A model generated the notes under the pieces. The model had not been told where the DNA came from, made no database searches, and saw nothing but the letters and a program-made list of their open reading frames with translations. 64,000 nucleotides of DNA from positions 64,390 to 128,389 of the forward strand of contig CALWAF010000001.1 of assembly GCA_944372795.1 (NCBI GenBank), read 5' to 3'. Both the position numbers and the translations under genes were made by a program. Shown here piece by piece: positions 3,834 through 55,105 of this stretch; position 1 is the stretch's first letter, and every line of letters starts with the position of its first letter. This stretch comes from an uncultured Clostridia bacterium. Lineage in GTDB: Bacteria; Bacillota; Clostridia; Christensenellales; CAG-917.

Positions 3834-4850
3834 ATGAAAAGACCGTACGCCGTTTTTTTTGTTCTCGTGATGCTTTTTGCGACACTCGCGTTTTCCCTTG
3901 CCGCGTGCAACGATAACACGGGCGGGACTACGCAGGACGACACGTCCGCGGTGCAAGACCCCGACGACACCGAAACTCCCTCCACCGACGATCCGAGTTC
4001 GGACGACGACACCGACACGGACGACGAGGCGACTTACATCTACTATAAACCCGTCCAAGGCTACGATTACACCGAGGGAGATGAGATCGAGCACATCACC
4101 TACTACTCCTCCGTTGCGGGCGCCGACAAGCACGCCAACGTCATCCTCCCCGTGGACTATGACCCCGAAAAAAGCTATCCCGTGCTTTACCTTCTCCACG
4201 GTCTCATGAGTGACGAGTACTCATGGATAGACGGCGTCTACGGGCTTGAGATGGGCGCAAACTACATCGTGCAGAACGCCCACTATTTCGACGGCGCTCC
4301 CGAGATGATCGTGGTGTGCGTCAACAGCCTCGTCAATGCCACGGAGACGGAGCCCGAGTGGGACATGTTCCCGCCCTCCGCACCTCCCGAACTCGCCGAG
4401 ACCTACGACCTCACGGGACGGGACATCACGGAATGTCTCATGCCCTACATCAACGCACACTACTCCACCCTGACGGGCAAGGAGAACACCGCGATCGCGG
4501 GCTACTCCATGGGAGGGCGTGAAGCCATGCTCACCGCGTTTGCTTATCAGGACATCTTCGGTTGGGTGGGCGCATTTTCGTCGGCGTCCTTCGGCACCGA
4601 CGTCGTGTCTGCCTCCGACTACGTGCCCGATTTCACCCTAGACAAGGGCTCCGACGGCTTTTATTACGTGCAAATCACGGTGGGCGGCTTTGACACCCTC
4701 GCACCCGTGAGCAGGAACATATGCGCAAGGCTTGATGAGATAGGCGTGGAATACACCTACAACACCGTCTTCTTCGGGGGGCACTCCCCTTCGGTGTGGC
4801 GCTCCGCGCTTAACGACTTCGTCAAAAACATATTCACGGATCCGGCGTGA
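3834..4850 (+). CDS. secreted lipoprotein esterase (putative esterase / CE1-like alpha/beta hydrolase)
   Basis: Lipobox LAAC at the N-terminus and an Asp/Thr/Pro-rich linker. GYSMGG nucleophile elbow and PVLYLLHG oxyanion region. AGGAGG RBS. Confidence 0.8.
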   Translation: MKRPYAVFFVLVMLFATLAFSLAACNDNTGGTTQDDTSAVQDPDDTETPSTDDPSSDDDTDTDDEATYIYYKPVQGYDYTEGDEIEHITYYSSVAGADKHANVILPVDYDPEKSYPVLYLLHGLMSDEYSWIDGVYGLEMGANYIVQNAHYFDGAPEMIVVCVNSLVNATETEPEWDMFPPSAPPELAETYDLTGRDITECLMPYINAHYSTLTGKENTAIAGYSMGGREAMLTAFAYQDIFGWVGAFSSASFGTDVVSASDYVPDFTLDKGSDGFYYVQITVGGFDTLAPVSRNICARLDEIGVEYTYNTVFFGGHSPSVWRSALNDFVKNIFTDPA

Positions 4851-10118: not shown

Positions 10119-11807
10119 ATGAAAAAAAGCAAGATCACTCTTTTGACCGCCGCGGCGCTGGTGCTTGTGCTCGCCTGCGGCATTCTGCTTGCCGCCTGCA
10201 ACGACAACGGCGGGAAGATAGGTTCCATGGGCGTCGAACCCTTCCCTGACACATTCACCAACGACATTGACACCGTGGACTCCGAAAATCTGGCGGTAGG
10301 CGCCTCGGTCACCGCAGCGAGCGGCGGGGACGCGTCCGCCGTCCTCGACGGCGACAAGACCACGGCATGGACTGCGGCGGAGACTTCGGGTCAGTGGCTG
10401 GAGATCGCCTTGTCCTCTCCTGCGGACATCAACACCGTGGTCATCCGCGAGAACGGCAACTTCATCTCCGGCTTCGGCTTTGTCCTCCCCGACGAGGACG
10501 GCGTCTATCCCGAAGACATGGTTTCCGCCTCCTTCTACCGTCAGCAGGACAGGATAGAACGCTATCGCTACTGCACCTTCGCGACGCAGGAGGACGTCAC
10601 CGAGTTCCGCATCTGGTTCGGCGGGACGGACGCGGGCAAGAGCCTCTCGATCGCCGAGGTGGAGATATACAACGTCGCGCCCAAGGAATATGACGGCGAT
10701 TTCCGCGTCTTCAACTACTACACCCCGCAGGATCTGCAATATATGGAGCAAGCCGACCTCCTCGAGGACTTCGAGAGCGACACCATCACGGACGTCATCC
10801 TCATCTCCCTCGCCTTCTGGATGGAGGACGGCAGCATCGTGTATGCCGAGGATCCCGACCTCTACGACACCTCCGACCCGAACTACGATCCCGAACGCGA
10901 TCAGTTCCGTTTCGTGGGCGATCACGAGGACCCCGACGGCTACTATAACGCCGCAATCCAAAAGGTGCACGACGCCATCGCCGCGCACGTCGCGAGAGGT
11001 GGCAGGGACATCAACATCTGCATAGATTTTTATCCCAAGATCGTAACGCAGAACGGACTGCCCGCCAACGAGGACGCCCTCGTTGAAAGCATACACACCC
11101 TCATCGTCGAGGACGACCGCGTGGACGGCATCGACATCGACTGGGAGTATCCCACCGGCGTCTCCGAATGGAAGGCATACGGCGATATGCTGGTCGCGGT
11201 GGACGAGGACTTCGACGCCTCGGGCAAGAACAAATATATCTCCCTCGCCCTCTCCGCCGACAACGTGCGCCTGACGCAGGAACAGGTGGACGCCATCGAC
11301 TTCGTACAGATGATGGCTTACGACCGCTTCGACATCGTGGACGGCAACCACTCCTCATTCCGCAGCGGTGCCTATTCCTCCATGCGCTACTTCGTCAATC
11401 TCGGCTTCGAGCCCTCGCAGCTGGTGCTGGGCACCCCCCTCTACGGACGCCCCAACACTTGGGACACCATATGGACCAACTACGGCTACGGCAGCGAAGT
11501 CTGGTCTACGCAGGACAAGGCGCCTTACACCTATTGGGACAACGTGCAGTGGCTTTATTTCGACGGCAAAAACACCGATGGCGAACAGTATGACGGCTCC
11601 GTGCTCACGCAGGTGTGGGTGAACGGCGCCGCCCTCATCGCCGACAAGACGGCGTACATCATCGAACAGGGCTTCGCCGGCATCATGCTGTGGAGAGAGT
11701 CCACCGACTTCGCTTGGGATGACGTCGACGTCAACGGCATGCCTCGCTCGGGGCTTCGCGCCATACACGACACGGCATCGGCTAGAATAGTCGGATACGG
11801 AGAATGA
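10119..11807 (+). CDS. lipoprotein: discoidin-like domain fused to GH18 glycoside hydrolase (paralog of 7514..9037)
   Basis: 562 aa with the lipobox LLAAC. Discoidin-like LDGDKTTAWTAAE...LSIAEVEIYN. GH18 motif DGIDIDWEYP. GGGGGAG RBS. Confidence 0.85.
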   Translation: MKKSKITLLTAAALVLVLACGILLAACNDNGGKIGSMGVEPFPDTFTNDIDTVDSENLAVGASVTAASGGDASAVLDGDKTTAWTAAETSGQWLEIALSSPADINTVVIRENGNFISGFGFVLPDEDGVYPEDMVSASFYRQQDRIERYRYCTFATQEDVTEFRIWFGGTDAGKSLSIAEVEIYNVAPKEYDGDFRVFNYYTPQDLQYMEQADLLEDFESDTITDVILISLAFWMEDGSIVYAEDPDLYDTSDPNYDPERDQFRFVGDHEDPDGYYNAAIQKVHDAIAAHVARGGRDINICIDFYPKIVTQNGLPANEDALVESIHTLIVEDDRVDGIDIDWEYPTGVSEWKAYGDMLVAVDEDFDASGKNKYISLALSADNVRLTQEQVDAIDFVQMMAYDRFDIVDGNHSSFRSGAYSSMRYFVNLGFEPSQLVLGTPLYGRPNTWDTIWTNYGYGSEVWSTQDKAPYTYWDNVQWLYFDGKNTDGEQYDGSVLTQVWVNGAALIADKTAYIIEQGFAGIMLWRESTDFAWDDVDVNGMPRSGLRAIHDTASARIVGYGE

Positions 11808-18962: not shown

Positions 18963-19475
18963 TTACGCCAGCATCACGATGAGCGCTATGCCGAGCAACA
19001 CGGCGAGCTTGAAGTACATGCCTCCGAGGCGTCTGCTCTCTTCGGCGCACTTTGCGCGTCTTGCGCCGAAGTCCTCCTTCCAACGCCCCGCGGCAGCCAG
19101 CTGATCGGAAAGCGGCGTGGTGCCGAGAGCGGAAAGGAATTCCCGCAACTTCTTCTTCTCATCGGGTTTCAGTTTCGCGCTTTCGGCGGCGGAGGCAGCG
19201 GCGCCCTCCTGCGTCCCGCCCAACGCGAGCGCGGCGGAAAAACGCTGCAACACTCCCGCGAACGCGCCCTTCCTGCCCTCCGCGAAACCCGCTATCGCCG
19301 CATTGAGCGGGGTCTTGCGGAAGCCGAGCTCGGAGGTCAGATAAGCGGCAAACGCCTCGGCGTCGGCAAAGAACTTCTCCCTCTCGATGTAGTGCCGCCT
19401 GATAAGCACCCCGCCGTAACAGCAGATAAGTGCGAGCAGCCCGCCCGCGACAAGCCGCAGTATGTCCGCCGTCAC
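18963..19475 (-). CDS. spoIIIAB: stage III sporulation protein AB
   Basis: GTG start 19475 overlaps the spoIIIAA stop (GTGA), with AAGGAGAGG upstream. The 170-aa product has N- and C-terminal TM helices, and its operon position fits. Confidence 0.75.
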   Translation of the reverse strand: MTADILRLVAGGLLALICCYGGVLIRRHYIEREKFFADAEAFAAYLTSELGFRKTPLNAAIAGFAEGRKGAFAGVLQRFSAALALGGTQEGAAASAAESAKLKPDEKKKLREFLSALGTTPLSDQLAAAGRWKEDFGARRAKCAEESRRLGGMYFKLAVLLGIALIVMLA

Positions 19476-20353
19476 GAGAGCCTCTCCTTTAGCTCCCCCG
19501 CCGTCAGCACCTCTTTCGGCGTGCCCGCGCGCGGGCGCGGCGTTAGCACGACACACGTCTCCGCCACGGCGGCAAGCGGCGCGAAAGCGGACGCACGAAA
19601 CACCGCCTCCGCGCTTTCGCCGTGTATGGAGGCAAACACTTTGACACCGCTCCTTGCGATGTCCGCCACCGCTTTCGCCTCTTCCGCGCCGAATATCTCG
19701 TCGGTGACGATAACCTCCGGGCTCATCGCGCGTATGGTGTTGGCATATGCCGTGAGTTTGTCCACGCCGCTCACCACATCGCAGTCGCCGACGTCGAGAG
19801 AGGGCACTCCCCTTTCCGCGGCAGCCAGCTCGAAGCGCTCGTCGATGATGAGAGTGTTCCGCTCCCGCGAGGACAGCCGCGCAAGTTCCCGCAACAGTGT
19901 GGTCTTGCCTCCGTAGGGCGGCGAAATTACGAACGTGTTGCCCACTCCCCCGCCGAATACGGCGTACGACACCTCGCGGGGGACCTCTTTCACCTCATGG
20001 GGTATGCGCACGGTGAGGAAGGCTATGTGTTTCATCGTGAGCACGTGCCCGCCTTCCACGACACCCTCTCCCGCCACGCCTATGCGTATGCCACTCTTCG
20101 CCATATATCCTTTCACCAGCTGATCGTTGACGGCGTAGAGGGAAAAGTCGGACGCCACGGCAAGCACTCGTTCGATGTCGTCGCGGCGCACGACGAAGGG
20201 CGCTCCCGACGGCAATTTCGCCGCCCTGCGCTCCCCCGCCGTCAGCACCACAAGAGGTCTCCCGACCCGCATACGCAACTCGGTGACCTCTTCCTCCGCG
20301 GCAACGGCAGCCACCGCCGCCGCTACGACACCCGTGACCAGTCCCTGAAACAT
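19472..20353 (-). CDS. spoIIIAA: stage III sporulation protein AA (AAA+ / secretion-type ATPase); start codon uncertain
   Basis: Walker A PPYGGKTTLLRE and the N-terminal block ELRMRVGRPLVV, equivalent to EEVRIRIGRPIEL of B. subtilis SpoIIIAA. ATG 20353 has no clear RBS. An alternative TTG/ATG about 75-80 nt downstream follows GGAGGAAGAGG. Confidence 0.8.
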   Translation of the reverse strand: MFQGLVTGVVAAAVAAVAAEEEVTELRMRVGRPLVVLTAGERRAAKLPSGAPFVVRRDDIERVLAVASDFSLYAVNDQLVKGYMAKSGIRIGVAGEGVVEGGHVLTMKHIAFLTVRIPHEVKEVPREVSYAVFGGGVGNTFVISPPYGGKTTLLRELARLSSRERNTLIIDERFELAAAERGVPSLDVGDCDVVSGVDKLTAYANTIRAMSPEVIVTDEIFGAEEAKAVADIARSGVKVFASIHGESAEAVFRASAFAPLAAVAETCVVLTPRPRAGTPKEVLTAGELKERLS

Positions 20354-20408
20354 ACTAAAAGATATGACCGCCGCTCCCCTGCAACACCCCCGCCGCATCA
20401 TTCGACAT

Positions 20409-20442
20409 AAAAAGAAAAAACGCCCCGCACACCGTGCGAGGG
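20409..20442 (-). terminator. intrinsic terminator ending the noncoding region upstream of spoIIIAA
   Basis: On the minus strand, CCCTCGCA-CGGTG-TGCGGGG (one bulged T) is followed by CGTTTTTTCTTTTT. It lies 56 nt upstream of the spoIIIAA ATG. Confidence 0.65.
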
Positions 20443-20610
20443 TGTTATCTAAATGCGCACGTCGTTCACGAGGTATCGAACAACACCCGCTCGGGAGGGT
20501 GCGGCGGGCTCGGGCTAATTTAACGGGTGTATGTCCCTTGACATGGAAGCATTGCTCCCCCTCCAACCCGGGGACCCCACAAAATTGCCTGCGGCGATTT
20601 TGCGGGGAGC

Positions 20611-20657
20611 CCCATTCGGGAATTCCTCCCCCACTCGGGAAGAGTGCAGTTCCCTAA
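20611..20657. repeat. direct repeat copy 1 (28-nt perfect core at 20623..20650)
   Basis: The core TTCCTCCCCCACTCGGGAAGAGTGCAGT is identical to 20764..20791. The flanks CC(C)ATTCGGG and CCCTAA are also similar. Confidence 0.9.
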
Positions 20658-20752
20658 CATTGGAGTATTGTTTACCCCCTTCCCGCGGGTTTCGTCGTAC
20701 TCAAACGTGAAATAGAGTACACGTCTCGCGGGGAAAGTTGTTCCCCCTCCTT

Positions 20753-20798
20753 CCCTTCGGGCTTTCCTCCCCCACTCGGGAAGAGTGCAGTCCTCCTA
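20753..20798. repeat. direct repeat copy 2 (28-nt perfect core at 20764..20791)
   Basis: See copy 1. The period is 141 bp and only two copies are present. Confidence 0.9.
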
Positions 20799-21088
20799 AA
20801 ATGCGGGATACACTTTTCGTCCTTCTTGATATAGTTTAAGTTTCGCATAGAGATGATCGAGCGGCGAACAGTACTCACTGAACATCGCTCGCGGGGAGAG
20901 GAAGGCGACTCGACGCGCACGGCGCCCGTGTCTATTTAATGTTTCGTCTAGCTTGCGAGGTCGCATTTCGCGCCGCGGCGTTCAAGCGGCGGCTGCGCCG
21001 CCTGTGAACGCTTGGGTGAGCGGCGCGTTGTTCCGTCCCCGAAAGAGAGACGTCGTGCTCGGGGACGCCTTATCAAACGTTTATTGCG

Positions 21089-21212
21089 CTGACGCTCTCA
21101 TTTGGATGCAGAACGCGAAAGCACCCCTTTTCAGGCGAGGCGCGTACTAAACCGTACGTAACGAGCCTGAAAAGGGGTGCTGACAAAGTTGTGCGCCAAA
21201 TGAGAGCGTCAG
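21089..21212. repeat. 124-nt two-tier inverted repeat abutting the hydA stop codon
   Basis: Outer arms CTGACGCTCTCATTTGG (21089..21105) and CCAAATGAGAGCGTCAG (21196..21212), 17 bp perfect. Inner arms GCACCCCTTTTCAGGC (21121..21136) and GCCTGAAAAGGGGTGC (21165..21180), 16 bp perfect. The internal loop is a symmetric 15 x 15 nt. Confidence 0.9.
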
Positions 21213-22948
21213 TAGTTGTTGCGGGGGGTGTAGCGCGTATGCAACAACTCATGCGCAAGGTGAGAATTGGGCTTGCCCAAGAACTCATCGTAGAGCTGCT
21301 TGACGACGGGATTCTCGTGGGATTTGCGCAGCTTCATCTTCTTGTCGGTGTCGTAGATCGCCTTGGCGCGGAGCGCGGGGACGTCGACGGTGTTGCGGAC
21401 GAAAGCGCTCTTGATGGGCTGACCGCCGCCGTTGACGCAGCCGCCCGGGCAGGACATGATCTCGATGAAGTGATAGTCGGCTTTGCCTGCGCGCACGAGC
21501 TCCATGAGCTTGCGGGCGTTGGCGAGGCCGCTTGCGACGGCGACTTTGACGGTGGTGCCGTCGATGTCGTAAGTGGCTTTCTTGATGCCCTTGGTGCCTC
21601 TCACCTGCTTGAAATCGACGGAAGGCGCCTCTTTGCCTGCGACGATCTCGTAGACCGTGCGCAGCGCGGCTTCCATGACGCCGCCCGTGGCGCCGAAGAT
21701 GAGACCCGCTCCCGTATAGATGCCGAGGGGTTCATCGAATTTCTCGTCGGGGAGCTCGGTGAACATGATGCCGCAGCGCTTGATGAGCTTGGCGAGCTCG
21801 CGGGTGGTGATGGCAATGTCGATGTCGGGCACGCCTGCGGCGTTCTCGTTGGGTCTGCCCTTCTCGAACTTCTTCGCCGTGCAGGGCATGACGGAGACGA
21901 CGACGATGTCCTCCGCATCCCAACCCATCTTTTCGGCGTAATAGGTCTTGACGATGGCGCCGAACATCTGCTGGGGGGACTTGCAGGTGGAAAGATTGCC
22001 CAAAAGATCGGGGAAGTTGTGCTCGCAGAACTTGATCCACGCGGGAGAACAGCTGGTGATCATGGGCAGTCTGCCGCCGTTACGCAGCCTGTCGAGGAAC
22101 TCTGTGCCCTCCTCCATGATGGTGAGGTCCGCACTGAAGTTGACGTCAAAGACGTTGGCAAAGCCCATCCTGCGCAGCGCGGCGACCATCTTGCCCTCGA
22201 CGTTGGTGCCGATGGGATAGCCGAACTCTTCGCCGAGCCCCACTCTGACGGAGGGTGCGACGCCCACGACAACGTGTTTGGTGGGGTCTGCAAGCGCGGC
22301 GAGGACGTCGTCGATCTCCTCACGCTCGGTGAGGGCTCCGACGGGACAGACGGAGATGCACTGTCCGCAACCCACGCAAGGCACTTCGGAAAGAGGCTTC
22401 TCGAAAGCGCAGCCGATGTGCGTATCAAAACCTCTCGCATTCGCGCCGATGACGGCGACGGACTGATATTTGGCGCACGCCGCGACGCATCTGCGGCAGA
22501 GCACGCACTTGTTGTTGTCGCGCACGATGTAGGGCGTGGACGAGTCGATGACGTACTTGTTGGTGACACCCTTATACTTGTGTCCGTCGCAGCCGAGCTC
22601 GAGGGAGAGCTTCTGCAGCTCGCAGTTGTTGTTGCGCGAGCAGCTCAAGCAATCCTGATTGTGGTCGGAAAGGATGAGCTCGACAGTGGTCTTTCTGCTC
22701 TCCATGACCTTGGGGGTGTTGGTGAACACCTCCATACCCTCGCTGACGGGATAGACGCAGGACGCGACGAGGCTCCTTGCACCCTTGACTTCGCACACGC
22801 ACACGCGGCAGGCGCCGATGGCGTTGATGTCCTTGAGATAGCAAAGCGTGGGGATGCGGATGCCCGCCTCTCTTGCCGCCTCGAGGATGGTGGTGCCCGC
22901 CTCGACGCTGACGGGGATATTGTTTATTTTCAGATTAACTTTTGCCAT
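21209..22948 (-). CDS. hydA: [FeFe]-hydrogenase catalytic subunit (HydA / HndD-like, multi-FeS N-terminus)
   Basis: 579 aa with an N-terminal 2Fe-2S ferredoxin fold (CYLKDINAIGACRVCVCEV) and two 4Fe-4S motifs. H-cluster motifs are TSCSPAW, MPCTAKKFE and EIMSCPGGCVNGGGQP. Confidence 0.95.
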   Translation of the reverse strand: MAKVNLKINNIPVSVEAGTTILEAAREAGIRIPTLCYLKDINAIGACRVCVCEVKGARSLVASCVYPVSEGMEVFTNTPKVMESRKTTVELILSDHNQDCLSCSRNNNCELQKLSLELGCDGHKYKGVTNKYVIDSSTPYIVRDNNKCVLCRRCVAACAKYQSVAVIGANARGFDTHIGCAFEKPLSEVPCVGCGQCISVCPVGALTEREEIDDVLAALADPTKHVVVGVAPSVRVGLGEEFGYPIGTNVEGKMVAALRRMGFANVFDVNFSADLTIMEEGTEFLDRLRNGGRLPMITSCSPAWIKFCEHNFPDLLGNLSTCKSPQQMFGAIVKTYYAEKMGWDAEDIVVVSVMPCTAKKFEKGRPNENAAGVPDIDIAITTRELAKLIKRCGIMFTELPDEKFDEPLGIYTGAGLIFGATGGVMEAALRTVYEIVAGKEAPSVDFKQVRGTKGIKKATYDIDGTTVKVAVASGLANARKLMELVRAGKADYHFIEIMSCPGGCVNGGGQPIKSAFVRNTVDVPALRAKAIYDTDKKMKLRKSHENPVVKQLYDEFLGKPNSHLAHELLHTRYTPRNNY

Positions 22949-29537: not shown

Positions 29538-29818
29538 ATGCCGGAGCGGAATAATACGAACCTGCCTCAGAGCAATTCTTTTCGGCGCTTTTGCACAGCC
29601 GAAACTTGCGGGTATGTATACTATTGCCTGCGTTCCGCCAGAGCAAAATCATCCGAAAATCTCTTGCTCTGAGGTGCGAGCAGTTCCGCGCCAGCCGATT
29701 TTTGGCTGAGCAAGGAAGTCGGCGCCGCTAATACCTGCCCGTATTAGCAAGGCGAATGACGCAGTTCAGGCGGAAATCGGCGACGCTGAACCCGGTTCGT
29801 ATTATTCCGCTCCGGCAT
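29538..29818. repeat. 281-bp segment bounded by perfect 25-bp inverted repeats (inverton or MITE candidate)
   Basis: ATGCCGGAGCGGAATAATACGAACC (29538..29562) is the exact reverse complement of 29794..29818. The 231-bp interior has at least five internal hairpins. The right arm contains the last 5 codons and the stop of nadE. Confidence 0.9.
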
Positions 29819-30551
29819 AGCGCAGAGGCATACGGCGTTTGTGCGCCGTCCTCTCCTCCATGCCCGCGATGCGGCGGCGCATACTCTCCGAGAGTTCCCC
29901 TCCCCTGATGTACGCCGTGATGTCGCCGTAGGTCACGCCCAACTCCGTTTCGTCCGTCTGCTCGGGGTAAAGCCCTGCGGACGGCGCCTTTTCGATGATG
30001 CTTGCGGGCGCGTCCAAAAAGCGGAGCATCTCGTAGATCTCGGGAACGGTGAGGTCGGCGATGGGGTCGAAGTCGTATGCCCCGTCCCCCCACTTGGTGA
30101 AGTAGCCCACCGTGTATTCGCAGAGGTTGCCCGTGCCCGCGACGAGATAGCCCTTCGCCTGACCGAGAGCGTAAAGCGTCGTCATGCGAAGACGGGGATT
30201 GATGTTGATGAGGGCGCTTCTAGCCGCACCGTTCTCCTCCCCTTCCGCAAGCCCGTCGCCCAGCGCCGCAACGAGGCTTTCCTTGACGGCGGTAAGATCC
30301 ACCTCCGTCTGCTCTATGCCGAAGTGCCTGCCCGCGGCGAGAGCGTCGTCGCGGTCGGAGCCGTAGTTGGCGGAGGACTGACAGGGCATGATGACGCCCA
30401 GCACGTTCGGAGTCGCCATGCGGCAGAGAGCGCCCACCAGAGTGCAGTCCTTCCCGCCGCTGTTGCCGTAGATGATGCCCCTCGCGCCCGAGCTTTCCAG
30501 CACCTCTTTTATCCACTTCACGCGATTTTCGACATTTGTGCTAATATCCAT
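29802..30551 (-). CDS. nadE: ammonia-dependent NAD+ synthetase
   Basis: PP-loop motif GNSGGKDCTL and a C-terminal region typical of short NadE. ATG 30551 was chosen because GGAGG lies 7 nt upstream. The track start at 30590 is less likely. Confidence 0.85.
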   Translation of the reverse strand: MDISTNVENRVKWIKEVLESSGARGIIYGNSGGKDCTLVGALCRMATPNVLGVIMPCQSSANYGSDRDDALAAGRHFGIEQTEVDLTAVKESLVAALGDGLAEGEENGAARSALININPRLRMTTLYALGQAKGYLVAGTGNLCEYTVGYFTKWGDGAYDFDPIADLTVPEIYEMLRFLDAPASIIEKAPSAGLYPEQTDETELGVTYGDITAYIRGGELSESMRRRIAGMEERTAHKRRMPLRYAGAE

Positions 30552-30709
30552 ATCCATGCCTCCGTTCTGCGGCTGTATTTCACCAAGCAATTATATTCCG
30601 TCCTTTAACGTTTTTCAAGCCAATTTTAAGCAAAATGGGGGTTGTATTTGCAAAAAAGTTGGGGTATAATGGTCTCGATCACAAAAAAAACCTCAAAAAG
30701 GAGTAAATT

Positions 30710-53247: not shown

Positions 53248-53295
53248 AATGAATCCCCCTATATTAACGGTAAAATTCCCAGATTTTTCCATTTA

Positions 53296-53309
53296 CGAAA
53301 ACGTTTTCA
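53296..53309. promoter_or_regulatory. LacI-type operator with perfect 12-bp palindrome GAAAACGTTTTC
   Basis: The palindrome sits at 53297..53308, in the leader of the minus-strand 16-kb operon and downstream of the promoter at 53347..53375. Confidence 0.6.
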
Positions 53310-53346
53310 TAATTTAACCGAGAATTTCACCCGCTTTGATGAGTCC

Positions 53347-53375
53347 ATTTTACTATGGCGATGGCGGATTGTCAA
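53347..53375 (-). promoter_or_regulatory. sigma-A promoter of the minus-strand island operon (TTGACA-17-TAAAAT)
   Basis: -35 at 53375..53370 and -10 at 53352..53347, with a 17-bp spacer. Confidence 0.55.
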
Positions 53376-53395
53376 TACATAATTTGAAAAATGTG

Positions 53396-53424
53396 TTGAC
53401 AACCCACTCGCTCATGTTTATGAT
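53396..53424 (+). promoter_or_regulatory. sigma-A promoter of the GH32 gene (TTGACA-17-TATGAT)
   Basis: TTGACA at 53396..53401 and TATGAT at 53419..53424. Confidence 0.6.
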
Positions 53425-53429
53425 AATTT

Positions 53430-53443
53430 TGAAAACGTTACCA
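53430..53443. promoter_or_regulatory. cre/LacI-type operator TGAAAACGTTACCA at the predicted GH32 transcription start
   Basis: Fits TGWAANCGNTNNCA exactly and lies 6 nt downstream of the -10 box. Confidence 0.6.
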
Positions 53444-53531
53444 AATGTGCAATAAAAACTCGAGATAGTGTTCAAGATGTTTCGCCATATCAATATCGTT
53501 TTCAAATTAAAATACCGCGCGGAGATACTGT

Positions 53532-55028: not shown

Positions 55029-55105
55029 TGGTGGAGCTTAGGGGATTCGAACCCCTGACCCCTTGTCTGCCAGACAAGTACTCTAGCCAACTGAGCTAAA
55101 GCCCC
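55029..55105 (-). tRNA. tRNA-Ala (anticodon GGC), CCA encoded
   Basis: Manual cloverleaf. Acceptor GGGGCTT/AAGCTCC with the G3:U70 alanine identity pair. Anticodon stem CTTGT/ACAAG, loop CTGGCAG. T-arm AGGGG-TTCGAAT-CCCCT. Confidence 0.9.

Follow-up and report, generated by a model that had tools for sequence, protein, structure and literature searches.

A mosaic of dispersed, structured repeats between the hydA and spoIIIAA genes of an uncultured gut Clostridia bacterium

Among described systems, the RAYT-associated REP and BIME repeats of Enterobacteria and Pseudomonas offer a close parallel to the 855-nt gap between hydA and spoIIIAA in an uncultured Clostridia bacterium. This gap lies in a 64-kb stretch of DNA (assembly GCA_944372795.1, contig CALWAF010000001.1, positions 64,390 to 128,389), hereafter the window, and contains two repeated elements, a nested hairpin of ~118 nt (NH) and a multi-helix core of ~370 nt. 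Like REP and BIME, NH and the core are multi-copy, extragenic and mostly situated after genes, occur singly or in mosaics, and keep structure more than sequence. REP units, however, are simple palindromes of 20-40 nt with a GTAG or CGTC tag, whereas NH has conserved internal loops and the core several helices, and no RAYT has been identified here. Effects of REP on mRNA stability and translation were reportedly described by Higgins in 1988 and by Liang and colleagues in 2015. Hairpins of ~100-150 nt are also known from the ERIC/IRU sequences (127-bp imperfect palindromes) and from the Correia elements of Neisseria, which lie in transcribed intergenic regions and have orientation-sensitive effects on mRNA. 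These resemble NH in being long hairpins of similar size, but they have conserved terminal inverted repeats and, in the case of Correia, a TA target duplication, whereas the outer stems of NH vary, covary and include the resident stop codon. Within the Firmicutes, the BOX elements of Streptococcus pneumoniae and the bcr elements of Bacillus cereus are group-specific repeats of modular build, interspersed in intergenic regions close to genes and predicted to form stable RNA structures. NH and the core share with them the modular, interspersed habit but no sequence similarity, and the core is larger, with long-range helices in place of simple stem-loops. The large ornate RNAs, including OLE, ROOL, GOLLD, raiA and HEARO, recall the core in their length of several hundred nt, many helices, covariation and Firmicute hosts, but their Rfam models do not match it. 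Apart from the IS-associated HEARO, such RNAs typically occur in one to few copies per genome beside characteristic neighbours, whereas copies of the core are scattered, in many cases truncated or in tandem, and carry no promoter signal. REP termini can supply the stop codon of a flanking open reading frame (ORF), and the hairpins of REP or of miniature inverted-repeat transposable elements (MITEs) alter the stability or fate of mRNAs (PMC3733652).

The hydA-spoIIIAA gap is a mosaic of at least three separable modules, each of which occurs independently elsewhere, and not the single large non-coding RNA (ncRNA) envisaged in an earlier note on this DNA. NH and the core are separate multi-copy families of Candidatus Limadaptatus-like gut Clostridia, and both their dispersal and the conservation of their structures, as well as an association with stop codons, are directly observed. 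The earlier note had named a dispersed repeat of REP or MITE type as the finding that would speak against its proposal, and at the level of the families this is what was found. There are several copies per genome at unrelated loci, the sites are extragenic and at none of 15 called core loci divergent, the hairpins are stable with conserved structure, and relatives are polymorphic for presence and absence, all as in interspersed repeats; the terminal inverted repeats and target-site duplication of a classical MITE were found in neither the core nor NH. Both families are absent from Rfam 15, and lineage-specific structured interspersed repeats are, as a kind, well known. A literature search with a purine-rich signature string, extended to the first 200 of the 408 supplementary files of a human-microbiome structured-RNA survey, returned nothing.

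The gap is probably best regarded as a BIME-like mosaic. Its units would be interspersed repeats of the REP/BIME/ERIC kind, specific to this lineage, that lie in the 3' regions of genes and possibly act on the upstream mRNA. They would be non-autonomous, spreading and undergoing rearrangement as DNA. At this locus they would be transcribed by read-through as the 3' untranslated region (3' UTR) of the hyd mRNA, because the gap has no promoter-like site and a terminator lies downstream. Once folded, the repeat RNA would act in cis on the upstream message, with NH clamping the stop codon and so affecting termination or ribosome release, and with stable helices blocking 3'-to-5' decay as described for REP and ERIC; spoIIIA would not be regulated by the repeats. 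It is unlikely that the gap instead holds two undescribed RNA classes, a stop-codon-clamping NH that tunes translation termination, ribosome rescue or mRNA 3'-end stability and a multi-copy ornate core with a separate function, whose pyrimidine strand and two mirror purine tracts would build a purine-motif triple helix or some other unusual G-rich fold. If that were true, NH would be selected to pair with the stop codon of its own host gene, gene by gene. For annotation, long structured gaps without ORFs in these gut Clostridia can be repeat mosaics and not ncRNA genes or leaders, and these repeats break short-read assemblies. Two well-supported covarying families are added to the short list of Firmicute interspersed repeats, and the embedding of a stop codon in a stem, with TGA/TCA replaced by TAA/TTA, makes an effect of a repeat hairpin on termination or mRNA decay testable in a new clade.

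Contents of the hydA-spoIIIAA gap

All genes of this locus lie on the minus strand, and the gap reads on that strand, from 5' to 3', as NH, a spacer, the core, a junction with a truncated second 3' domain, a tail, an intrinsic terminator and a conserved stretch before spoIIIAA (Table 1). Its only ORFs are six short ones of 56-97 aa. They could be taken as traces of a decayed or unrecognized protein-coding gene, the chance of which is close to nil: none of the six has a Pfam match above noise, indels between homologous copies are not multiples of three, and conservation tracks helices and not codons. The initial description of the gap as lacking a credible ORF is upheld on the first two grounds. 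The 28-nt perfect direct repeat with an imperfect extension is likewise confirmed, being exact at 20623-20650 and 20764-20791 (two occurrences in the 64-kb window against 0 expected) and extending over 39 nt with 92% identity or, in BLAST self-matches, over ~50 nt with 88%. The terminator, the small hairpins and the nested inverted repeat all proved to be present where they had been placed. The inverted repeat has 17-nt perfect arms (21089-21105 and 21196-21212) and 28-nt arms (21120-21147 and 21154-21181), the hairpins CCCCGA..UCGGGG and GUACUC-N12-GAGUAC can be read directly in the sequence, and a CCCGCG/CGCGGG pair lies at 20732-20727 and 20687-20682. The minus strand of the gap folds better than shuffled sequence (z = -2.5). 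The gap is thus non-coding and conserved, as first proposed, and covariation in NH and the core supports its RNA-like structure.

Table 1. Features of the hydA-spoIIIAA region, in window coordinates, in order along the minus strand.
Feature	Position	Strand	Remarks
hydA	21209-22948	minus	[FeFe]-hydrogenase large subunit; Pfam Fe_hyd_lg_C and Fe_hyd_SSU
NH element	21089-21212	minus	~118-nt nested hairpin, dispersed family (nhmmer)
hydA stop codon TGA	21209-21211	minus	paired inside NH outer stem, within 17-nt perfect arms
NH outer stem	21212-21188 / 21114-21089		
NH inner stem	21181-21167 / 21134-21120		
NH apical hairpin CGUAC-N6-GUACG	21158-21143	minus	invariant
Spacer between NH and core	21064-21088	minus	covered by neither family model
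Core element	20693-21063	minus	~370-nt multi-helix dispersed repeat; iterated nhmmer score 354, E = 1e-106, model positions 3-376
Core 5' R-type hairpin	21066-21035	minus	CCCCGA..UCGGGG
Core P1 (ACGCGCCGC/GCGGCGCG)	21027-21020 / 20976-20969	minus	
Core P2 hairpin	21011-20997 / 20993-20978	minus	
Core P3 long-range helix, UUCCUCUCCCCGCG / GUGGGGGAGGAA	20903-20890 / 20775-20764	minus	
Core GUGCG/CGCAU-type helix	20848-20844 / 20805-20801	minus	
First 28-mer	20764-20791	minus	contains P3 3' strand and preceding local hairpin
Core CCCGAAGGG hairpin	20761-20753	minus	
Core mirror purine tract AAGGAGGGGG	20752-20743	minus	
Core 3' hairpin GUACUC..GAGUAC	20720-20697	minus	12-nt loop
Core terminal GAGUACGACG	20702-20693	minus	
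Junction and 5'-truncated second copy of core 3' domain	20530-20692	minus	nhmmer partial match 20660-20612 to model positions 264-313
Mini-hairpin GGGGCUCCCCGC..GUGGGGUCCCC	20566-20612	minus	~40-nt GC-capped REP-like unit inserted in truncated copy
Tail	20443-20529	minus	R-like remnant CCUCGUGAACGACGUGCGCAUUUAG at 20473-20449 (direct repeat with 5' R hairpin) and small hairpin
Intrinsic terminator	20405-20441	minus	stem 20441-20423, then T-run; sole minus-strand site in terminator scan
Pre-spoIIIAA conserved sequence (UGUCGAAU ... CAUAUCUUUUAGU-AUG)	20354-20404	minus	outside the repeats
spoIIIAA	19472-20353	minus	Pfam Spore_III_AA

The Rfam 15 covariance models, which include those for RNase P, tmRNA, 6S, SRP, OLE, ROOL, GOLLD, raiA, HEARO, T-box, riboswitches and group I/II introns, gave no family at gathering score within the gap when run on the window. 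At E values up to 10 the gap yielded noise only, such as a viral miRNA model placed on the hairpin and a ylbH leader whose 20.6 bits fall well short of the cutoff of 50, and 110 kb of related loci with at least 14 cores and at least 10 NH copies gave no family matches. The failure of the earlier note to recognize a known RNA family thus holds for the window and its relatives alike. A group II intron, considered on account of the location near terminators, was rejected when no intron-family model matched, and a CsrA sponge, considered for the many GGA motifs, was rejected too, since these motifs form part of helix P3 and do not occupy hairpin loops.

The second 28-mer (20650-20623) lies in the truncated second copy of the core 3' domain, an assignment based on BLAST self-matches and on comparison with the copies in loci L009, L092 and L045 (L numbers denote individual loci fetched for comparison). 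A tail motif, GG(A/G)GGGGG..CAAU..CC(A)AUGU(U/C)A(A)GGGA, has two further copies at 20680-20651 and 20562-20533. The extra partial 3' domain is found in the window only, among the family members listed, and none of the 144 loci fetched contains the 28-mer in its exact form. The internal duplication first described is thus real but is no feature of the family, and a tandem-aptamer or repeated-binding-site architecture is not indicated, since the duplication is confined to the window; it is a local rearrangement and not a design feature. The mini-hairpin inserted in the truncated copy is of the kind found in the L092 core, and its pattern has 22 matches in loci that carry the elements; 7 of these fall within cores, where their positions differ.

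The nested hairpin and the stop codon

The NH family comprises at least ~14 near-full copies recovered with nhmmer. In their alignment (A2) RNAalifold assigned 44 pairs, of which 30 show compensatory changes on both sides, and 94.6% of the cells are paired, compared with 74.2% in shuffles and 36-47% when the pairing is slid. The NH covariance model scores the window copy at 126.9 bits on the minus strand and 60.4 on the plus strand, and members of the family at 107-134 bits on the strand of the gene and 43-65 on the other, an asymmetry due to conserved unpaired segments and the invariant apical CGUAC-N6-GUACG hairpin. In 12 of the 14 copies NH begins at the stop codon of a co-oriented ORF that is at least 166 codons long, and this codon lies within the outer stem; the two copies without an abutting stop codon are second tandem copies. 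Most copies, among them those after hydA in the window and after efp (encoding EF-P) in L003, L009 and L041, pair TGA with TCA, and TAA is paired with TTA in the NH of L016 and L045. The partner bases at the 3' end of NH follow whichever stop codon is present. In the relatives that lack NH (L004, L005, L006 and L007) the C-terminus of EF-P is the same or nearly so, with one additional residue in L007, and is followed by ordinary sequence. No T-run follows NH in the window, L003, L016 or L009, and without a U-tract NH is not an intrinsic terminator. No direct duplication was seen flanking NH, and its arms vary and covary.

Stems that vary yet keep pairing are also a property of REP units and attC sites, and the structures might accordingly serve DNA mobility only, as single-stranded DNA hairpins for a Y1/HUH-type (RAYT, IS200/IS605-like) or other transposase encoded at another place in the genome, with RNA folding incidental. 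This explanation is doubtful. The numbers of G-U cells (12) and A-C cells (7) in NH do fit it, the former being not much above the latter, so that pairing looks nearly symmetric between strands, and so do the clustering of the elements with short REP-like units, R units (see below) and the mini-hairpin, and the precedent of CGTC- and GTAG-tagged REP (PMC3733652). However, the orientation of NH follows the gene with the abutting stop codon in 12 of 12 cases, its conserved unpaired loops are strand-asymmetric (~125 against ~55 bits), and recognition by a transposase does not readily account for the covariation between the stop codon and the NH 3' end; furthermore, no transposase was noticed in ~310 kb of flanking sequence, in a search that was not systematic.

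Elsewhere in the window, a second and unrelated palindrome that embeds a stop codon occupies the spacer between nadE and a 2Fe-2S ferredoxin gene (29538-29818, minus strand). Its 33-nt inverted arms, which are 91% complementary, surround 215 nt, and the last five codons of nadE (29802-30590; NAD_synthase, E = 1e-55) together with its TAA stop lie inside the 5' arm. The NH model finds weak matches within this palindrome, of 17 and 14 bits.

Fold, copies and placement of the core

The core family was gathered by scanning metagenomes with a degenerate pattern for its purine-rich block, followed by iterated nhmmer, and all copy counts are lower bounds. At least ~20 full-length and at least ~25 partial copies are present in at least 25 metagenome loci, next to unrelated housekeeping genes that include clpB, upp, pilins, PFOR, pfkA, lysS/greA, efp and a histidine kinase. 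In one assembly, three contigs of similar coverage, 130-138x (P58 NODE-2, NODE-8 and NODE-99), carry four cores and four NH copies, and two core copies each are found in five loci (L009, L050, L065, L073 and L117). Many copies stand at contig ends, and contigs of the same species as the window (identical HydA, identical SpoIIIAA) break off within the window element (gap position 342 for L144, 599 for L001). Within a genome the cores are 82-95% identical, compared with a family median of 67%. BLASTN of plasmid and phage collections gave no match to the core, and a pattern scan of viral contigs gave 7 matches, none of them confirmed by nhmmer and all attributable to chance. The search pattern also occurs five times at an exact spacing of 49 nt in an unrelated tandem satellite (L054 2114-2330, on the 105-kb contig JAEEGL010555784.1).

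Placement was assessed with a crude gene caller, hand-corrected in two loci, and both neighbours could be called at 15 core loci. The neighbours converge at eight of these loci. They are in tandem at the other seven, where the core is co-oriented in six cases and anti-oriented in one (L065), and no locus is divergent. Co-orientation is automatic in convergent regions, and thus only the tandem cases (6 against 1) and the lack of divergent sites are informative; a strong co-orientation of the core with its upstream gene (16-17 of 18) was rejected for this reason. In L117 and L050 the core starts directly after a stop codon. A scan found no promoter-like site in the gap or before core copies, and a sigma-70 promoter within the R unit was rejected as well, given that its TTGAC(T) and TTATTC are only ~11 nt apart and the promoter scan finds none.

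The core fold was examined in an alignment of 18 copies (A1) for four helices. P1 is invariant and therefore uninformative on covariation, and the GUGCG/CGCAU helix is nearly so. In P2, a hairpin of 13 bp, both partners have changed in 7 pairs, as from GUUCA/UGAAC to UUGCA/UGCAA to UUUCA/UGAAA. P3, with the consensus UUCCUCxCCCRYG paired to CRYGGGGGAGGAA, encloses ~140-240 nt; two of its pairs covary, and the minimum-energy fold of the central domain includes it in 18 of 18 copies. Taken over the core, nine of the 39 pairs tested have changes on both sides, as do 39 cells, and 96.2% of cells are paired against 90.4% in shuffles and 39-56% in slid controls. In the central domain CCCGCA may pair in either of two competing ways, in the GUGCG/CGCAU helix or in a local hairpin. 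Different copies carry inserted hairpins of 30-130 nt at several distinct positions. The core is bounded by direct repeats of ~10 nt (GAGYACGACG), part of an R unit of ~32 nt that also forms small arrays beside cores. In L009 (2520-3040 and 3440-3540), direct arrays of the ~30-nt R unit (UGUUUGACUCCCACGUNNACUNAUUCG) stand before each core, and three inverted R-unit copies follow the second core, which could form long-range helices enclosing the tandem pair. Another palindrome, ...CCCC(U/G)CGAGGG(G/U)(C/A)UUAU(G/A)CCCCUCG..., is shared by L047 (~10200-10260, minus strand) and L090 (~4760-4810) between the upstream terminator and the core, suggesting further REP-like families in these genomes.

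Two mirror-symmetric purine tracts, GGGGGAGGAA and AAGGAGGGGG, flank the CCCGAAGGG hairpin and face the pyrimidine strand of P3 (window 20775-20743; A1 columns 283 and 551-584). In L009a/b and L046 there is a concerted U-to-C, A-to-G and A-to-G change, representing one evolutionary event; speculatively, it may be compatible with a base triple, and an extension of the small hairpin explains it too. The BoxC/TM-ECO intrastrand-triplex repeats of E. coli, at locally rearranged loci, combine a pyrimidine block with two mirror-symmetric purine blocks, separated by loops of 1-6 nt (PMC4666352), whereas in the core more than 110 nt separate the purine tracts from the pyrimidine strand, and a triplex here is putative.

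Such features might belong to a new class of large structured multi-copy ncRNA that functions as an RNA itself, for example as a protein-binding scaffold or triple-helix fold, and whose spread is secondary. That reading would take in the multi-helix architecture with its invariant single-stranded blocks and compensatory changes, the tolerance of hairpin insertions only at certain positions, the constancy of P3, the facing purine tracts with their concerted change, and the retention of a copy at the efp/spoIIIAA locus across species with SpoIIIAA only 74% identical. It is nonetheless rather improbable, as covariation is concentrated in P2, and P1 and the GUGCG helix, being constant, are uninformative; the copies are not preceded by promoter-like sequence, and one of them stands in the opposite orientation to the tandem genes on either side. 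Truncation, tandem arrangement and chimerism are frequent among the copies, the distribution is narrow (one gut clade among the matches listed), and the greater likeness of copies within a genome than between species is as expected of repeat amplification or gene conversion.

Several observations weigh, for their part, against the favoured reading of the gap as a mosaic of interspersed repeats acting on upstream mRNA. The core ends are direct repeats without terminal inverted repeats, unlike those of classical MITEs, and no transposase or other mobilizing gene was found next to any copy. A clean pair of empty and filled sites with a target duplication was not recovered, the comparison of L003 with L041 revealing a deletion remnant and not an insertion. 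The 64-kb window itself holds only one NH and one core. An intrinsic terminator stands between the upstream gene and the core in L135, L047, L090, L092 and L073a, and 3'-UTR status is therefore not general. The strand asymmetry of the core is weak, with the given strand folding better in 13 of 18 copies by a mean of 6.4 kcal/mol. Finally, with its 370 nt, at least four conserved helices and insertion-tolerant sites, the core greatly exceeds REP, ERIC and BOX units in complexity, a hint that it may have a separate function.

The spoIIIAA region and its relatives

A genome scan with SpoIIIAA provided 15 loci from Candidatus Limadaptatus and related uncultured Clostridia. The usual gene order in most of them is rny, an aminopeptidase gene, efp and spoIIIAA, with a short spacer containing a terminator, and only L009 and the contig-edge fragment L002 have gap sequence in common with the window. 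In L009 the homologous DNA follows efp and not hydA, and a unit of ~460 nt is tandemly duplicated. The hyd operon takes the place of efp in the window (19472-22948, compared with L003-L007, L009 and L016), and efp is absent from the entire 64 kb, so the window locus has been rearranged. The junction of this break in synteny coincides with NH, which follows efp in L003, L009, L016 and L041. At the efp/spoIIIAA locus neither element is present in L004, L005, L006 and L007, NH occurs without the core in L016, both occur in L041/L002 and L009, and NH is accompanied by a deleted core remnant in L003.

These comparisons bear on the suggestion, also made in the earlier note, that the gap is a leader of spoIIIA, that is, a cis-regulatory or riboswitch-like RNA with tandem ligand- or protein-binding modules. 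The gap does lie upstream of spoIIIAA on the same strand, and it ends in a terminator 57 nt before the start codon, and a core also stands upstream of spoIIIAA in L009 and L002/L041. Nevertheless, this is not a spoIIIA leader to judge by the ~370-nt element, which in most cases adjoins the 3' end of its neighbour and is found beside clpB, upp, pilin, PFOR, pfkA, lysS/greA and histidine-kinase genes. The terminator, the conserved start region and spoIIIAA are all present without either element in L004, L005, L006 and L007; L016 has the conserved start region and NH but no core; the duplication is peculiar to the window; and other genes intervene between the element and spoIIIAA in L002, L003 and L009. 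The repeats fill the space between the upstream stop codon and the terminator and are therefore not part of spoIIIA control. A leader is already contradicted by the comparative data and is very improbable.

Equivalent terminators are found 20-70 nt before spoIIIAA in L002, L004 and L007, and the terminator in the window likely ends the upstream transcription unit because relatives have one at the same position. The stretch that follows it is 72-81% identical over 61-66 nt to sequence directly upstream of spoIIIAA in L002, L003, L006 and L009, and a stretch ending in CAUAUCUUUUAGU-AUG is kept before spoIIIAA in every relative; it is presumed to be the promoter or 5' end of the spoIIIA operon. 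No Shine-Dalgarno sequence precedes spoIIIAA. Its AUG follows CAUA(U/C)CUUUUAGU in every relative, 20-70 nt after the terminator (window 20351-20366; L002 944-960; just upstream of spoIIIAA in L004, L005, L007 and L009). This motif resembles a sigma-E-type -10 box (CATACA-T), in which case the transcript would have no leader or almost none.

In some relatives the repeats are separated from spoIIIAA by two genes (L009 3701-3835; L002 675-809; L003 3172-3615, minus strand). The first is a conserved ORF of 44 aa, beginning MSAEEFAVYLRILLADG... in L009 and MSVEELTLYLKILLLDE... in L002, which is absent from the window gap. The second is divergently oriented, putatively XRE-like, and present in L003, L002 and L006. 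L002 and L006 (contigs DVMN01000126 and DVMN01000029) come from one metagenome-assembled genome with two spoIIIAA loci, one with NH and the core and one without, which probably mixes two strains or species. Elsewhere in the window, a cluster of AT-rich inverted repeats (53300-53314/53425-53439 and 53380-53399/53490-53509) with a palindrome at 53293-53312 occupies 53293-53509, ~1.5 kb from a tRNA gene (55032-55105).

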